A stretch of DNA of 64,000 bases from assembly GCA_963752255.1 (NCBI GenBank), contig CAVVXT010000012.1:32001-96000 (forward strand), in the 5' to 3' direction. The notes below the pieces were generated by a model. The model searched no databases, was not told the DNA's origin, and worked only from the letters and a program-made list of their open reading frames with translations. Source of the DNA: Nitrososphaeria archaeon (GTDB taxonomy: Archaea; Thermoproteota; Nitrososphaeria; JACIWG01). The stretch's first letter is position 1. Every line of letters begins with the position of its first letter. This document shows, piece after piece, positions 31,695-60,143 of the stretch. The position numbers were made by a program, and so were the translations under genes.

Positions 31695-32544
31695 CTAGGT
31701 TTGCGACGCCAATCTCTTGTCGGATGTTTTTGGTTTGTTTACAATCTGGGAAATATATATGCCTATGAACATTATTGCAATGCCAATTATGGACAGTGCA
31801 GATGGTGATCGTCAGTGTCTCCAAGAATTGCACAATTACAGTGAGAGCTGGAACTGCGAAAACCGAAGTCGTCACTATGTTTATTTTTTCTTCTCTTATC
31901 ATCAGGTTCCATAGGAGGAACTGTAAAGCTCCTCCTAGGATTGAAAGGTAAAGTAGGTCGATGACGAATTCGTTTGTAAAACTGAGCTTGAAATTAATTG
32001 GAGAAAGGACAAGCATGAAGAGCGAACCCAGCATGAACTGGGAGCCTACGACTGAGATTGGGTCGTCTTCCTTCATTTTTTTGAAATACACTGAAAATAG
32101 TGACCATAAGACTGCGTTGACGAGGGTTAGTATAGAACCTAATAGAAGGAAACCTGTCAGTAGAGGTATTGAGAAGATTACGACACCTGAAAAACCTATC
32201 ACGGCACCTATTACTTCTGTGAGTGTCCCCTTTTCCTTTAACAGTGCCCATGAGGTGAAGATCGTTATTAGGGGCATTGTGTAACTTAGTACGGCTGAAT
32301 CTGAAGGAGATAAATATTCGAGTCCGTACGCCCACAGGACAGTACTTGATGTCGTAAGCAACGACAGAATTATTAAATCCCTATTAAACAGAAAACGTCT
32401 CGAAATTAATAGCAACAATGAGCCCGCTATCAAGTATCTCAATCCCATCACGAAAAATGGCGATGAGTAGTTGAGCGAATCCTTAGTGAATTGATACAGG
32501 AATACGGCAACTACGATGTAAGGAACCAAATACTTAAACTTCAT
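31695..32544 (-). CDS. EamA/DMT family transporter (frameshift near 31810 alters the C-terminus)
   Basis: LRYLIAG, LSYTMP, LKEK and about 10 TMs. The last TM (SIIGIAIMFIGIYIS) is in the adjacent frame. Confidence 0.88.
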
Positions 32545-53910: not shown

Positions 53911-54819
53911 TCAAACTCCAACGCCTAATCTTTCAGCCACCGTTAGGTAAAAGCCAGCTAACCCCTTCCATTTACCCCACTTGCTGGCTGTTACACGTGC
54001 TTCCTTGCTTGAAATCTCTGCATCACTAAAGTAATAGTGTGAAATGGACCTCCTTAACCCAAGGTCATCTGCAGGAATAGCATCGAATCTATGCATTCCT
54101 CGTAGTACTGTTAGCTCAGCAGTCCACAATCCGATACCCCTTATCTTATCTAGCTCATCAATGATTTTTTCTGTACTTTCAAAGTCATTGAACTTTTCTA
54201 GATCTAACTCATTACTTGCTATGGACTTTGATATGCTGTTAATGTATTCTGCCTTCCTCATGCTCAAACCGCATTTACGTAGCTGTCCAAGACTGGCATA
54301 AGCCAGTCTTTGTGGTCTTGGATAAGAATAAAAGACTTCGCCGTCGACCTCCAAGGGATCGCCAAATTTAATTATCAAGTCTCTCTGTAGGCCATGAGCT
54401 ACTTCTAGGGAGATTTGTTGTTCAATTATCGAATCTATTAGCGCTTCGAAGACAGTGGGGGTGGCTGGGCTCTTTAGACCCTTAAGTCTTTCGATTATTC
54501 CACTCATCGTTTTATCCCCTTTCACGTCCTTATAGAACAGTTTAAGGTCCAGATCCAAGTTAAAAATAGAACGTACATTCTCCCGAGCTGTGTCGATTTT
54601 TATATCATCTGTATATCCAGATTTTAGTTCGATTGACAACTTCGGCTTATCAACAGAACCTAATGATCTGACGATAATGAGCACTAAATGATCTTCAAAT
54701 CGCAAGGCCTGCCAAAATCTTTCACCTTCATATTTACGTATACGTCTATCACCGTATGAAAAGATCTTTGAACTGAGGTCGAAGTCAAAAGGGGGAACCG
54801 AGTCTATAATAATCTCCAT
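53911..54819 (-). CDS. alkA: DNA-3-methyladenine glycosylase II (HhH-GPD)
   Basis: FEALIDSIIEQQIS, IRGIGLWTAE (HhH), PADDLG. Confidence 0.9.
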   Translation of the reverse strand: MEIIIDSVPPFDFDLSSKIFSYGDRRIRKYEGERFWQALRFEDHLVLIIVRSLGSVDKPKLSIELKSGYTDDIKIDTARENVRSIFNLDLDLKLFYKDVKGDKTMSGIIERLKGLKSPATPTVFEALIDSIIEQQISLEVAHGLQRDLIIKFGDPLEVDGEVFYSYPRPQRLAYASLGQLRKCGLSMRKAEYINSISKSIASNELDLEKFNDFESTEKIIDELDKIRGIGLWTAELTVLRGMHRFDAIPADDLGLRRSISHYYFSDAEISSKEARVTASKWGKWKGLAGFYLTVAERLGVGV

Positions 54820-55428: not shown

Positions 55429-56389
55429 TTAAAGTTTCACCATCCTTAATTTACCTAAAACGAAATCAGGGGCCAATAGGTTACCTGAGACAACTTCAAC
55501 GCCATATGATCTAAATACTTTATCGCCGGCACAAAAATCGATCCTGACCTTATCATATACCATAGATGTGTCCGAAATAAAAGCAAAGAGCTGAGCTTGT
55601 TCGCTGAAACTGATTATTCCATTCTCTTCCGACGTTGTCCCGAAGTAGCACGTTCCAAGCTCTTCAGCTTCTGCGACAAATGAACTTATCGGATCACATG
55701 TAAGGAGGACTATAGTGTTATTTCTGAACTCTATCGCGCTCTTCTTAAACTTTCCCATAGCATCTGCTATCTCTTTACGTATCCAGACACCAGAATGTCC
55801 TCCTTCATCTCTACTGGCGAAGCTCGTCATCAGTGACACATCTAAGGGTGGAAGAAGGGTGAACTCAGTATTATCTTTCAGGAAGTTGATTTCATTCATC
55901 GCATAGAAGGCCTTACTGCTATCAATTGAAGAACGCTGAACTCCAGTTTTGGTATTATATCCCATCTTCTCTATCTCCAACATAGCGAGCCTTGGCACCG
56001 CAAATATGAGATTTTTCAGAGTTGGACCGAGAAAGTATGACAGAAGCTTTGAACAATATCGGCTACTGATGAATCCAATATCAGGAACCAAGTATTTGTA
56101 GCTCATCTTCGAAAGAAAGAATTCTTTCCAGTCTGGGGCTGTTATAAGCTTTCCCCACCTTTTCTCCTGGAAGAAAGGTGGTTATCCTAGAAGGATCATA
56201 TACGTTGAAGAATTGGGTGTTAAGGCCCAGTTCCTTCTGAAACTTGACACTCCTGGAAGCATCATCGTATTCCCAAACCTTATCTTGGTCCCTGTAGGCG
56301 CGTATGACAAGAGACGCGTTTTGGAGCTTTGCATTGAAATCTAATGCTTCTAAAAGCTCTGAGAACTGCTTCCCCTCTACTACGCTCAA
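55429..56389 (-). CDS. PIN-like domain protein (ORFs 56081..56389 and 55429..56106, possibly one frameshifted gene)
   Basis: LVPDIGFI...VPRLAMLEIE...IRKEI...LLTCD spacing resembles PIN acidic motifs. The two ORFs overlap by 26 nt. Confidence 0.45.
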
Positions 56390-56887
56390 ATTCCATCAGA
56401 AAGATGTAAAAGTGCCATAATATAATCTTTGACCAACACTTCGACCCTACCTTATTAGGACCATCTTCTTGAATTCTTCGACAGCCCTCAGGAAGGATAC
56501 ATCCACCGGAACATAGTCCTTGTCGATCTGCTTAAACATCTACCTCCATATGGCCTCTACGACAAAAATAAACTTGGAGCATAGGCAAAAAAAGAGCCAC
56601 AAGGAAGTCTTCAAACTCCTCCGAATGCTCGCAGACCTTAAAGAATTGCAGGGTATGCTTTCGAGTGAACTGTATTATTATTGTTGCGTCAAATATGACA
56701 ATTTATCAAGTGATGGCTGATGATGAACGCTGATGATATTTATTTGATGATAGCCGATGATTATGACTACGGAAGGTGTTGACCCTGACGGCAATCTGAC
56801 AAAACAACATATTGACAAAGCCCCAGAAAAAGACCTCAGAATATGATTGTTTAACGCCTTTCCAACATATTAAAGATATATTTGAAT

Positions 56888-58139
56888 TCAAACCCTTTTC
56901 CGTAAAGGAAGTGTTATTATGAACTTTGAACCCTTTCCAACACTACTTCCCACGGTTATACTTCCACCATGCGCCTCTACCAGTCTTTTACATATTGCAA
57001 GCCCTAATCTTGTACCCTTTGATTTAGTAGTAAAGAATGGCTTGAAGAGTTTTTGTAAATTCTCCTCAGATATACCCACACCTGTATCTTCAACGCTAAC
57101 TATTCCTTCTTTTTCAGTGTTCGACATTTTTATTTGTAGATTACCTCCCTCAGGCATAACTTTGATAGCGTTCGTGATCAAGTTAGTAAACACCCTTGCC
57201 ATAAAGGCTGAATCAATAAATACTTCAGGGAAACCGTCTTGAACGTCAATTCTAAACGTGATATTATTAGGGATTTCAATTGTTAAAATAAGTGAGTCTA
57301 GAAGCTTCGGCAAGTTTGTTGAGGCAAAAGCTGGTTTAAGAGATCTTGCATAATGGAAATTTAAGGACAGCTTGGACACTTTCAAATAAAGTTAAGAATT
57401 CCTTCGATCTTTGTTGTGCCTCTTTTAAAGCAACTTCAAGGTTTTTTTCAGCAACTTTTCTTATTGTTATATCTCTTGCATAAAAGTTAACGTATCCCTT
57501 TTAAAGCACCAACTTCACATAAAATAGATACGTTCTTGAATTGTGTTCGATCCCAACACTCTTAACTTCTTCACTTTTACTAACTTCCAAGATCAAGTTC
57601 TTCCAGAAATCTGATGCATAGTATCCTACCTCCCCTACCATGCCCTTAAGCAGTTCTTTGGTGGCTCTGTTCTCATATAGTACTGCGTCATCAATTCCTA
57701 GGCGAAAAACTGGATTTGGGTTTTCTTCCGGAAAACTTGCATGGTCCTCAATTTGTTCTTCTGCTACCTTTTCCTTTGTTATATCATATAAAGTGATTAC
57801 CGATTTGCCATCCCTAAGCATTTTCATTTCTGTTTTCACATATCTCAATTCACCATCCTGACTAGATATACGATAAATTGATGGACCACCTCCTTCAGCT
57901 AAATGCCTTCTAAAAGCTGTATACACATTCTTTTGGTCTCCCTCAACTGGAAAAACCTTGGCTATCGTATCCTTTACGTTCTTGATTTCATCCAGATTGC
58001 AGCCAAGGATTCGACCGGATTTAGGGTTAGCATATATAATATCCTCATCCTTTCCGACTAAAATGATACCATAAGGTACAGTATTCAAGATGGATAGAAG
58101 GGTTCTTCCTATTCCAACCTTCTTTGCGATTTCAGCCAA
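56888..58139 (-). pseudogene. PAS-PAS sensor histidine kinase, inactivated (nonsense codon plus loss of the HisKA region)
   Basis: PAS motifs (YANP, ENPNPV, DITK). After an in-frame TAA at 57501 it continues KGYVNFYARDIT. HATPase_c boxes are NLITNA, DTGVG, FFTTK, LGLAIC; no H-box is seen. Confidence 0.8.
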
Positions 58140-58271
58140 CTACAAACGGCTTTCGCAAATGTAGTGTTTCCTTATATACTTTGACTTACGTTTGTAATCA
58201 GCAAGGTTTATTTAAGCAATAAACTTCTCATCACTAGATTGACTTTCCAATGTGAGTCACAGTGAAAAGTA

Positions 58272-60143
58272 ATGGCCAATTACACTCTGTTGGATGCAAA
58301 ATATGATGGTAATGTAGTCAGACTATTTTATCTCTCTGATAAAGGTAAAATTGAGGAGTGGAATGAAGGAATAGAATATCACCCCTACTTCTACTCCCTT
58401 GAAGATTCTGATACACTAAGCGAAGTAAAAGATCTGGGCTGTAAGATAACCCCGGACAGGAAGAAGGAGCTTTTCTCAGATAAAGAGCTGGGATATTATA
58501 GAATCGTTGGAAAAGAAGCAGCACTCGAAGAAGCGAGACGGGTTTTAAATAAGGTCTGGGAAGACGATCTCCAAGTTGAGGAAAAATATGCCTTTGATAA
58601 AGGTATAAGGTTCGGCGTTACATACGGCGATTTCGGTGAAAGTTTTCGACCAATCGGCGTTGATGCTAAAGTTTTCGAAGAAACTTTCGGTGATCTTATG
58701 GATTCAGACTCGATAAAATACGATCTTGCCAAGAAATTCTTCAATATTATTGAGCAGCCACTTCCTGATATACCAGAGGAAGTCTCAAAACGTTACAAAT
58801 ATGATAAGGATAGAATGCTTCAAGCTTTATATCTTTCACGGATTACCAATAGCCCAATAACTTTTAGAAACGCTCCTCCAAGTAACTTCATTAAAGCATT
58901 GTACTACCTATACCTGAAGAGCGAAGGGTATGTAATTCCTAAACCAGAAGAGTTCGCACGCGGTGAGAGTCCTAGAGGTATCTACGGGAAAGCAGCGTTG
59001 GTGATGACACCTGAGAAAGGTATATTCTTGAATACCTATGCTCTTGACTTCGAGTCACTCTACCCGAGTTGTATTGATGTCTATAATCTATCACATGAAA
59101 CAGTAAATTGCGAACATCATGAATGCCTGACAAATAAAGTACCTGAAGAGCAACATCATATCTGTACAAAAAGAAGAGGGAAATATTCCACTTTGATTGG
59201 GACGCTCAAAGACCTCAGAATAAGATATTACAAAAAGAAAGGAAGAGAAGGAGAGCCGAACGCAAAGGTCATTTCTGAAGTCCTAAAGATGATACTGGTC
59301 ATCTGCTATGGTGTGACGATAAGGATAAAAGGTCTCGCGAACCCCGCGCTTGCTGAATCTATAACAGCATACTCCAGAAATGCACTGAAAACCGCATGGA
59401 AGTTTGCTCTCGAACAAAACCTAAGACCTATCTATGGAGATACGGATTCCCTTTTTGTTGTAAACCCTTATGGTAAACAGCTGCAAACGTTGATTAACAG
59501 GGTAAGGAATGAGCTCAGGCTCGACCTTGCTATAGACAAGAATTATAAGGTCTGTGTCTTCTCATCCGCTAAGAAGGCGTACCTTGGGATATACGAGAGT
59601 GGTAAGATCGATCCTAAGGGCCTTGTAGCCTTCAAGTCGAACACACCAAGATTTGTCAGAAACGTGCTTGAGGAAACAGCGATGGAGCTTGCCAAGATAA
59701 ACTCTCAGGATGATATAGTAGATGTCCGGAATAGAGTATACAGGATATTGGAAAGCAGGGATAAAGATCTTCTTGAGAAGAGGTTTGAGGTCAAAGATAT
59801 GGAATTTAATGTTATACTACATAAGAAGCCTTCAGAAATAGCTAGTTCAAACGTATTCGCCCAAACCTATCAGTGTGCGATTCAGATGATCGATTCCGGA
59901 ATCGATTTGAGAAGAGGCCAAGTTATAACCTTTGCAAAGGTAAAGGCCTTTAACTATCGAGGGAAAAAATTTACTGTTAAGCCAATAGACTTCGTTAAGA
60001 AGGAAGAAATCAACATAGCAGATTATGTATCTAACTTGTACAGCATGATGGGCCAGATATTGGAGCCCTTGGGGATAAGTAAACGTGACACAGAGAAAGG
60101 ATACGATACCCTTACGAAATGGTTTAAGAATGTAACGAATTAA
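58272..60143 (+). CDS. polB: Family B DNA polymerase, PolB1-like, lacking the 3'-5' exonuclease domain
   Basis: DFESLYPS, KMILVICYG, YGDTDS, KKAY. N-terminus is PolB1-type, length is only 623 aa, and there is no ExoI DxE. Confidence 0.9.
   Translation: MANYTLLDAKYDGNVVRLFYLSDKGKIEEWNEGIEYHPYFYSLEDSDTLSEVKDLGCKITPDRKKELFSDKELGYYRIVGKEAALEEARRVLNKVWEDDLQVEEKYAFDKGIRFGVTYGDFGESFRPIGVDAKVFEETFGDLMDSDSIKYDLAKKFFNIIEQPLPDIPEEVSKRYKYDKDRMLQALYLSRITNSPITFRNAPPSNFIKALYYLYLKSEGYVIPKPEEFARGESPRGIYGKAALVMTPEKGIFLNTYALDFESLYPSCIDVYNLSHETVNCEHHECLTNKVPEEQHHICTKRRGKYSTLIGTLKDLRIRYYKKKGREGEPNAKVISEVLKMILVICYGVTIRIKGLANPALAESITAYSRNALKTAWKFALEQNLRPIYGDTDSLFVVNPYGKQLQTLINRVRNELRLDLAIDKNYKVCVFSSAKKAYLGIYESGKIDPKGLVAFKSNTPRFVRNVLEETAMELAKINSQDDIVDVRNRVYRILESRDKDLLEKRFEVKDMEFNVILHKKPSEIASSNVFAQTYQCAIQMIDSGIDLRRGQVITFAKVKAFNYRGKKFTVKPIDFVKKEEINIADYVSNLYSMMGQILEPLGISKRDTEKGYDTLTKWFKNVTN

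Follow-up and report, generated by a model that had tools for sequence, protein, structure and literature searches.

The 64,000-nucleotide stretch of DNA analysed here (the window) covers positions 32,001 to 96,000 of contig CAVVXT010000012.1 from the assembly of a Nitrososphaeria archaeon (GCA_963752255.1). At 58272..60143 its forward strand carries an intact open reading frame (ORF), with an ATG start and no stop codons inside, which encodes a 623-aa DNA polymerase of the PolB1 type that lacks an exonuclease domain. A preliminary description, made from the letters of this DNA, had reported an intact ORF with polymerase motifs A, B and C, and all of these read as described (Table 1). Pfam recognised PF00136 as the sole domain (residues 215-599, E 2.2e-25, 89.8 bits against a cut-off of 23), and the exonuclease domain PF03104 had no match in the protein at E values up to 1. 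Throughout, counts out of 120 refer to the best 120 homolog clusters of a word-indexed search that scored 7998 candidates, of which 626 proteins had E values of at most 0.001, and the short rows are the 12 members of the short-polymerase family in a 60-row alignment.

Table 1. Parts of the exonuclease-less polymerase gene, with their positions in the window.
Feature	Residues	Positions	Strand	Basis
Whole gene, exonuclease-less PolB1-type DNA polymerase		58272..60143 (including stop codon)	+	ORF; PF00136 alone; Dpo1 (1s5j) is the best solved relative
N-terminal domain (YDG, HPYFY, WEDD, EKYAFD, QPLPDI)	1-167	58272..58772	+	Aligns with own-genome PolB1 6-185 and Dpo1 19-197
Junction	168-203	58773..58880	+	~36 residues vs ~225 in PolB1 (exonuclease domain and linkers); helices only
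Palm, fingers and thumb	204-605	58881..60086	+	36% identity to own-genome PolB1 411-813
Motif A, DFESLYPS, with metal-ligand Asp and steric-gate Tyr	259-266	59046..59069	+	Invariant D, S, Y, P, S
CxHxxC...HxxC cluster in palm insert, PolB1 signature	280-298	59109..59165	+	C280, H282, C298
Motif B, KMILVICYG, Val343 replacing the family Asn	339-347	59286..59312	+	K, V, Y, G invariant, 120/120
Motif C, YGDTDS, both catalytic Asp kept	388-393	59433..59450	+	Invariant, 120/120
PIP-box-like LTKWF in low-confidence C-terminal tail	614-618	60111..60125	+	Similar tails in 10/12 short rows

The exonuclease domain is missing as a single block. Compared with the PolB1 of its own genome (831 aa), the short protein gave two collinear matches, residues 1-167 to PolB1 6-185 and residues 204-601 to PolB1 411-813, the second at 36% identity (E 3e-70). 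The first match ends at the sequence QPLP(D/N)I common to both proteins, directly before ExoI; in the short protein this lies within EQPLPDIP, at residues 161-168. A seven-sequence L-INS-i alignment showed the difference between the candidate and PolB1 as one clean block, and in the 60-row alignment residues 188-382 of the genome's own PolB1 had no partner in 12/12 short rows (197-199 residues; block ~195). Gap boundaries were taken from this multiple alignment; the pairwise global alignment fragmented the gap and was not used. The region without a partner includes ExoI (LDIEV, 190), ExoII (NGDDFD, 273) and ExoIII (YCFKDA, 368). The junction has kept its length across the family, with the span around it (query residues 150-215) measuring 65-69 residues in 120/120 homologs. 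Among solved structures, Dpo1 (1s5j) matched the candidate over residues 177-604 (Dpo1 388-826, E 1.7e-62), and a profile of 60 family members also placed the N-terminal domain on Dpo1 19-197 (E 2.2e-13) and the remainder on 393-839; with this profile the match to Dpo1 reached E 1.2e-115.

Structural modelling gave the same picture. The AlphaFold2 model of the candidate had a mean predicted local distance difference test score (pLDDT) of 86.7 and a predicted template modelling score of 0.81. Residues 1-170 adopt a mixed strand-and-helix fold (block pLDDT 86-95), and residues 120-250 are modelled as helices alone, with no beta-sheet able to build an RNase H-like exonuclease fold. Superposition with VIA-align on 1s5j gave a Z score of 35.1 and a root-mean-square deviation of 2.7 Å over 503 aligned residues, spread across residues 1-603 of the model; Thermococcus-type enzymes scored lower (Z ~30), and Foldseek was in agreement. 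The preliminary description had proposed that an exonuclease domain of ~200 aa was excised in frame, and had named a detectable exonuclease fold as evidence that would count against this; no such fold appears in the model. A single gap, with identical boundaries in 12/12 short rows, and an all-helical model of residues 120-250 argue for in-frame removal rather than decay. The exonuclease domain would have been lost whole via one ancient in-frame deletion.

Archaeal B-family polymerases are classed B1 to B10, and the earlier assignment of the candidate as PolB1-like was upheld. The best NCBIfam model was NF004417 (‘DNA polymerase I’, a PolB1 equivalog) with 339.1 bits against a cut-off of 780; the candidate fell below the cut-off of each of the curated PolB1 equivalog models NF004417, NF004419 and NF004415. 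The PolB2-type models NF004416 and NF004418 gave 82 and 54 bits, and identity to the PolB2 of the same genome was 22%. A maximum-likelihood tree (LG+G4) was built from 60 rows and 606 columns, excluding the exonuclease region. Its rows comprised 12 short-family members, 41 PolB1-type proteins (32 50%-cluster representatives of 780-960 aa and nine from genomes), four PolB2-like and three PolB3-like proteins, the latter two groups being taken from carrier genomes. The short family formed a single clade (support 100/100) with two branches, one Nitrososphaeria-type and one Bathyarchaeia-type, and PolB1 and the short family together were separated from B2 and B3 (100/100). The hosts' own PolB1s fell into well-supported clades with the short family outside them, which marks the short family as an old paralog. 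The full-length protein closest to it in the tree (99/93) was P0174, an aberrant 835-aa protein on a long branch. P0174 has an exonuclease domain, a motif C of YTHTDS and a motif B of KICLLSHYG, and may be another derived offshoot of PolB1.

A Cys/His signature in the palm points to PolB1 ancestry independently of the tree. Residues C280, H282 and C298 of the palm-insert cluster CxHxxC...HxxC were found in 12/12 short rows and 41/41 PolB1 rows and in 0/3 PolB3-like rows; the signature was derived in the present alignment and is not a published criterion. The cluster may be a metal site. The PolB1 of the window's genome has Asp at the third position of the cluster (1/41 PolB1 rows). On this sequence evidence, we conclude that the candidate descends from the PolB1 (Dpo1-type) lineage.

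The catalytic residues have been retained. D259, S262, Y264, P265 and S266 of motif A and K435 and Y437 of the KKxY motif were invariant in 120/120 homologs, the 12-row table showed conservation of the fingers region LRDLR/K, and in the 60-row alignment (A1) L315 and R316 did not vary. These residues suggest that the candidate is a catalytically competent family-B polymerase. Motif B carries one substitution, V343, which in the Dpo1-search alignment stands opposite the motif-B Asn of the Pfu and KOD enzymes (N491). The preliminary description had asked whether homologs share this change and the junction, and they largely do: Val was present in 120/120 close homologs, 11/12 short representatives and 4/4 PolB2-like rows, while Asn was present in 40/41 PolB1 rows and 3/3 PolB3-like rows. 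In the KOD ternary complex, N491 hydrogen-bonds the beta-phosphate, can bond the 3'-OH of the incoming deoxynucleoside triphosphate (dNTP) and packs on the nascent base pair, and changes in the fingers helix close to motif B alter nucleotide selection (sections of PMC5718519). Given this role and the same Val in PolB2, we suggest that scrutiny of the nascent pair is relaxed or altered, a change that would have arisen in parallel in two exonuclease-deficient lineages.

The C-terminus may tether the enzyme to PCNA. A PIP-like tail of the form [LI]-x-x-[WFY]-[FILM] was found in 10/12 short rows, similar tails occur in PolB1 rows, and the family profile aligns the LTKWF tail with the C-terminus of Dpo1. 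Residues 605-623 were modelled with pLDDT below 50 and include a short helix at 614-619. When residues 575-623 were modelled in complex with the PCNA of this genome, the score was 0.59 (best control 0.14), rated as weak support by the tool; at least 53% of contacts agreed between runs and the partner pLDDT was at least 46. The mark for such complexes was reached by 58/80 solved complexes and 2/110 mismatched pairs, and at 0.60 or under lay only 7/80 solved complexes together with both of the passing mismatches. The score may stem from solved, textbook PIP-PCNA complexes that the tool remembers. At the other end of the protein, the uracil/hypoxanthine read-ahead pocket, which comprises 17 residues in KOD (sections of PMC8596578), had conserved equivalents of P36, Y37 and E111 only, in a weak profile alignment of the N-terminal stretch (E 0.25).

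The short polymerase is a conserved family under purifying selection and not an assembly artefact. The best 120 homolog clusters encode proteins of 617-688 aa with PF00136 as the sole domain, at least 120 clusters have the junction of the candidate, and the source names are those of proteins from Nitrososphaeria or Bathyarchaeia metagenome-assembled genomes. An exhaustive search with 50% clustering gave ~7 family representatives, scoring from 884 down to 360 bits, after which the scores drop to 268 bits, the level of the first full-length PolB1s. Full-length orthologs were found in 9/10 genomes of the window's family (f1), with intact frames in 9/9 carriers; the only f1 genome without an ortholog is 68% complete. 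In the other six families of the class orthologs were found in 0/31 genomes, which gave only PolB1 matches of ~850 aa. An even sample of 401 genomes from the phylum held 14 carriers, namely the window's genome and 13 genomes in four other families at ~40% identity; the family spans two classes. Two sequencing runs of one study gave contigs that read through the junction, covering 58160-59199 and 58160-59111; they differ from the window by substitutions alone, with neither indels nor joints reported, and two further studies cover the junction partly. No RNA run was listed as a holder of the sequence among 21 runs. The deletion is not confined to one assembly. Against the same-genus ortholog, the ratio of nonsynonymous to synonymous substitution rates (dN/dS) was 0.156 over the whole gene, 0.143 in the N-terminal and 0.132 in the polymerase domain, bearing out the purifying selection proposed from the sequence.

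Whether the genome also has a full-length PolB1 or a PolD had been raised in the preliminary description, and PolB1, PolB2 and PolD are all present. Besides the DP2 subunit of PolD, this genome (94.7% complete) carries a bona fide PolB1 that has its exonuclease domain (1032.5 bits against the cut-off of 780). It also has a PolB2 operon (G000:C19:59923-64641, G000 being the window's genome), in which a 742-aa PolB2-type polymerase gene lies directly downstream of ORFs for RadA (330 aa), a weak Rad51-like protein (383 aa) and a 120-aa protein. This is the published layout of the PolB2 operon, whose partners are iRadA and PPB2 (sections of PMC11791011). The PolB2-type enzyme of this genome has a canonical motif C (YADTDS) and a motif B of KMVLVCIYG. 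A second, long PolB1-type frame was found in 9/9 f1 carriers, and the Bathyarchaeia-type carriers examined (n = 5) had bona fide PolB1 in 5/5, PolB3-like in 3/5, PolB2-like in 3/5 and PolD in 4/5. A full-length PolB1 accompanies the short polymerase in every carrier examined, so the short enzyme is an additional polymerase in each case and presumably does not serve as the replicase.

The structural and evolutionary claims of the preliminary description held up, while it had offered a translesion, error-prone or primer-extending function as a possibility. The explanation we favour, with moderate confidence, is that the protein is a stand-alone, probably PCNA-tethered, non-proofreading polymerase for repair or for lesion and mismatch extension. 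An ancient copy of PolB1 would have lost its 3'-5' exonuclease domain and retained the N-terminal domain, palm, fingers, thumb and PCNA-binding-type tail. As it could not proofread in cis, the enzyme would act as an accessory polymerase rather than a replicase. Tethered to PCNA, it might fill gaps during repair, or it might extend primer ends that are mismatched or paired with a lesion, a role comparable to that of PolB2/Dpo2 and eukaryotic Pol zeta. In motif B, the change from Asn to Val would remove a side chain that contacts the incoming dNTP, leaving a looser or altered check of the nascent pair.

A number of observations weigh against this explanation. The polymerase is the only gene common to all 14 orthologous loci compared, and across these loci there is no conserved neighbour pointing to repair. 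The preliminary description had noted an AlkA gene nearby. The distance is correct, as an AlkA-like HhH-GPD ORF of 302 aa (53914-54819, reverse strand) lies ~3.45 kb upstream; its linkage to the polymerase was rejected, as the ORF is found at 1/14 loci and is missing from the other 13, including that of a same-genus genome. Its proximity is incidental. Complementarity with the Y-family polymerases was likewise rejected, as no pattern emerged. PF00817 was found in 0/10 f1 genomes, and equally in 0/10 genomes of f3 and 0/6 of f6, which are not carriers, and families f2, f4, f5 and f7 have such a polymerase; it is also present in 2/5 Bathyarchaeia-type carriers. With PolB2 already in carriers, a second extender would be partly redundant. 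P0125, a divergent member of the short family, retains the motif-B Asn (KLLLNASYG), so that the deletion and the substitution are separable and Val is not required for the exonuclease-less form. Finally, the placement of the short clade as sister to crown PolB1 or nested within it has low support (61/24), bootstrap replicates had yet to converge (correlation 0.975), the LG+G4 model had no mixture component, nine rows were deviant in amino-acid make-up, and long-branch effects on the placement of the clade are possible.

Comparison with known polymerases places the candidate closest to PolB1 (Dpo1, 1s5j) by sequence, fold and tree; the two share the N-terminal domain, the order of palm, fingers and thumb, the CxHxxC...HxxC cluster and a PIP-like C-terminus, and differ in the ~195 residues bearing ExoI-III, in the motif-B Val and in a model score of less than half the PolB1 cut-off. 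To our knowledge, PolB2 is the only archaeal PolB group known to lack proofreading, and it is likely the functional counterpart of the candidate (sections of PMC8764526 and PMC7544198). Both are non-proofreading B-family enzymes that stand beside replicative PolBs and carry a motif-B Val. PolB2/Dpo2 is exonuclease-deficient by experiment, inserts nucleotides accurately and extends mismatched and lesion-containing termini very efficiently (sections of PMC8764526). However, PolB2 keeps a structurally decayed exonuclease domain, and most of its members lack the first motif-C Asp (sections of PMC11791011), whereas the candidate has no exonuclease fold, an intact DTD, no conserved neighbour and a clade of its own.

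The catalytic subunits of Pol zeta and Pol alpha are also B-family enzymes without proofreading activity, and Pol zeta is an extender of mismatches and lesions (sections of PMC8764526). In both, the exonuclease domain persists in inactivated form, and Zn-binding C-terminal domains and accessory subunits are present (in part from sections of PMC7544198); the candidate has dispensed with the exonuclease domain entirely and lacks a C-terminal domain of that kind. Engineered exonuclease-minus archaeal PolBs (9°N and KOD, e.g., A485L) are likewise archaeal B-family cores without exonuclease activity. These are point mutants in which the domain is kept, while the candidate is a natural, domain-less protein of 623 aa whose fingers carry another substitution, at the N491 position.

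The preliminary description had allowed that the group might already be catalogued as a ‘B1-like’ subgroup. No such catalogue entry and no description of an exonuclease-less PolB1-type group were found by full-text searches and in sections of PMC7544198, PMC4104785 and PMC11791011; the supplementary tables of PMC7544198 lay outside the search and may list such sequences within B1. The PolB1-derived, exonuclease-less family is thus apparently undescribed. It would be a second, independent exonuclease-less archaeal PolB lineage, kept in Bathyarchaeia-type genomes and in one family of Nitrososphaeria. If active, it would extend by one polymerase the repair repertoire of archaea that abound in soil, peat and sediment, show in a natural case how the exonuclease domain bears on the PolB fold and on template handling, and make the motif-B Asn-to-Val change, shared with PolB2, a candidate determinant of mismatch extension.

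More tentatively, archaea may have evolved a B-family extender polymerase for damage tolerance twice: PolB2 by decay of its exonuclease domain and in company with iRadA and PPB2, and the short family by excision of the exonuclease domain from PolB1 and alone on PCNA, with both converging on the motif-B Val. We put this forward as a speculation that is somewhat more apt to be wrong than right. If it were true, the Asn-to-Val change would act as a general switch in B-family enzymes, making scrutiny of the nascent pair or of the 3'-OH less strict, and the short family would provide a compact (~620 aa), natural exonuclease-minus scaffold with altered nucleotide selection. Natural exonuclease-minus archaeal PolBs are of practical interest, as engineered exonuclease-minus variants are in wide use for the incorporation of modified nucleotides.

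Of the other explanations, the one that survives best is a replication helper similar to Pol alpha, which would extend primase products or fill Okazaki gaps before handing over to PolD or PolB1. Eukaryotic Pol alpha lacks proofreading, and the candidate resembles it in combining this lack with an intact active site; Pol alpha catalytic subunits were among the significant profile matches (E ~1e-22 to 1e-27), the tail is of the PCNA type, and PolD and PolB1 occur in the same genomes. We nevertheless consider this role unlikely. The spread of the family is patchy (14/401 genomes sampled across the phylum), and the remaining families of the class (0/31) replicate without it; neither a primase nor a replisome gene is conserved beside it; and the protein ends at its PIP-like tail, with nothing like the Zn-binding C-terminal domain of Pol alpha.

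Alternatively, the polymerase might be proofread after all, if a separate subunit (a stand-alone DEDD nuclease or PolD DP1) provided the exonuclease in trans, in the way that epsilon serves bacterial Pol III. The genome does encode a 193-aa DEDDh-like nuclease (G000:C10:145964-146542, reverse strand; PF13482, 49 bits) with the motifs DFETTG, YNTRFEKD and HCLSD, as well as a weaker 157-aa frame on contig C8 (26 bits), where no ORF of at least 100 aa is listed on the matching strand, and the presence of PolD presumably implies that of DP1. However, a search of 45 genomes with the 193-aa nuclease as query found it in 0/9 other f1 genomes, 0/5 Bathyarchaeia-type carriers and one non-carrier, so that it does not co-occur with the short polymerase. 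PF03104 matches in the window's genome are confined to PolB1 and PolB2, none of the 14 loci has a nuclease gene as a conserved neighbour, and one of the five Bathyarchaeia-type carriers (G058, 98% complete) had no detected PolD DP2. This arrangement is, in our view, quite improbable.

Two further readings fare worse. The protein could be non-catalytic or a decaying remnant, either a truncated PolB1 en route to loss or a regulator that binds DNA or PCNA. The loss of a whole domain often begins decay, and PolB2 was long predicted to be inactive (sections of PMC4104785), but PolB2 itself turned out to be active (sections of PMC8764526). The low dN/dS (0.156, and 0.132 in the polymerase domain), the catalytic residues invariant in 120/120 homologs, the intact frames in 9/9 f1 carriers, the persistence across two classes at ~40% identity and the confident fold make this reading very improbable. 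Least probable of all is that the gene belongs to a virus or some other mobile element resident in the chromosome: compact B-family polymerases are known in mobile elements (sections of PMC4104785) and the distribution over lineages is patchy, but the flanks are syntenic across f1 genomes (gene clusters 2, 6 and 3 on one side and 1, 4 and 7 on the other) and contain housekeeping genes, the 114 IMG/VR stretches with a relative included no full-length match (best 33% identity, over residues 177-617 only), the two subclades of the tree follow the two host classes, and there were no signs of an integrase or terminal repeats among the scanned neighbours, although repeats were not searched for.

The flanking genes lie on the opposite strand to the candidate. 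Genes around the 14 loci have metabolic or housekeeping functions; those that recur within subclades, all metabolic or otherwise remote from DNA repair, include UPF0047, an AAA ATPase, an amidohydrolase, acetyl-CoA synthetase, lipoate ligase, a P-type ATPase and Trm112. Upstream of the gene, a divergent intergenic region of 132 bases contains a putative TATA-like, A/T-rich sequence (tttatttaa, 58207-58215), ~57-65 bases 5' of the ATG. Beyond it, on the reverse strand at 55432-58139, lies a sensor-kinase region in pieces, broken into ORFs of 212 aa (PAS), 165 aa (HATPase_c), 225 aa and 102 aa; in the same-genus genome the corresponding ORFs are single ones of 795 and 319 aa, and contigs of three sequencing runs depart from the window sequence left of 58160. 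The sensor-kinase region looks to be decaying or strain-variable.

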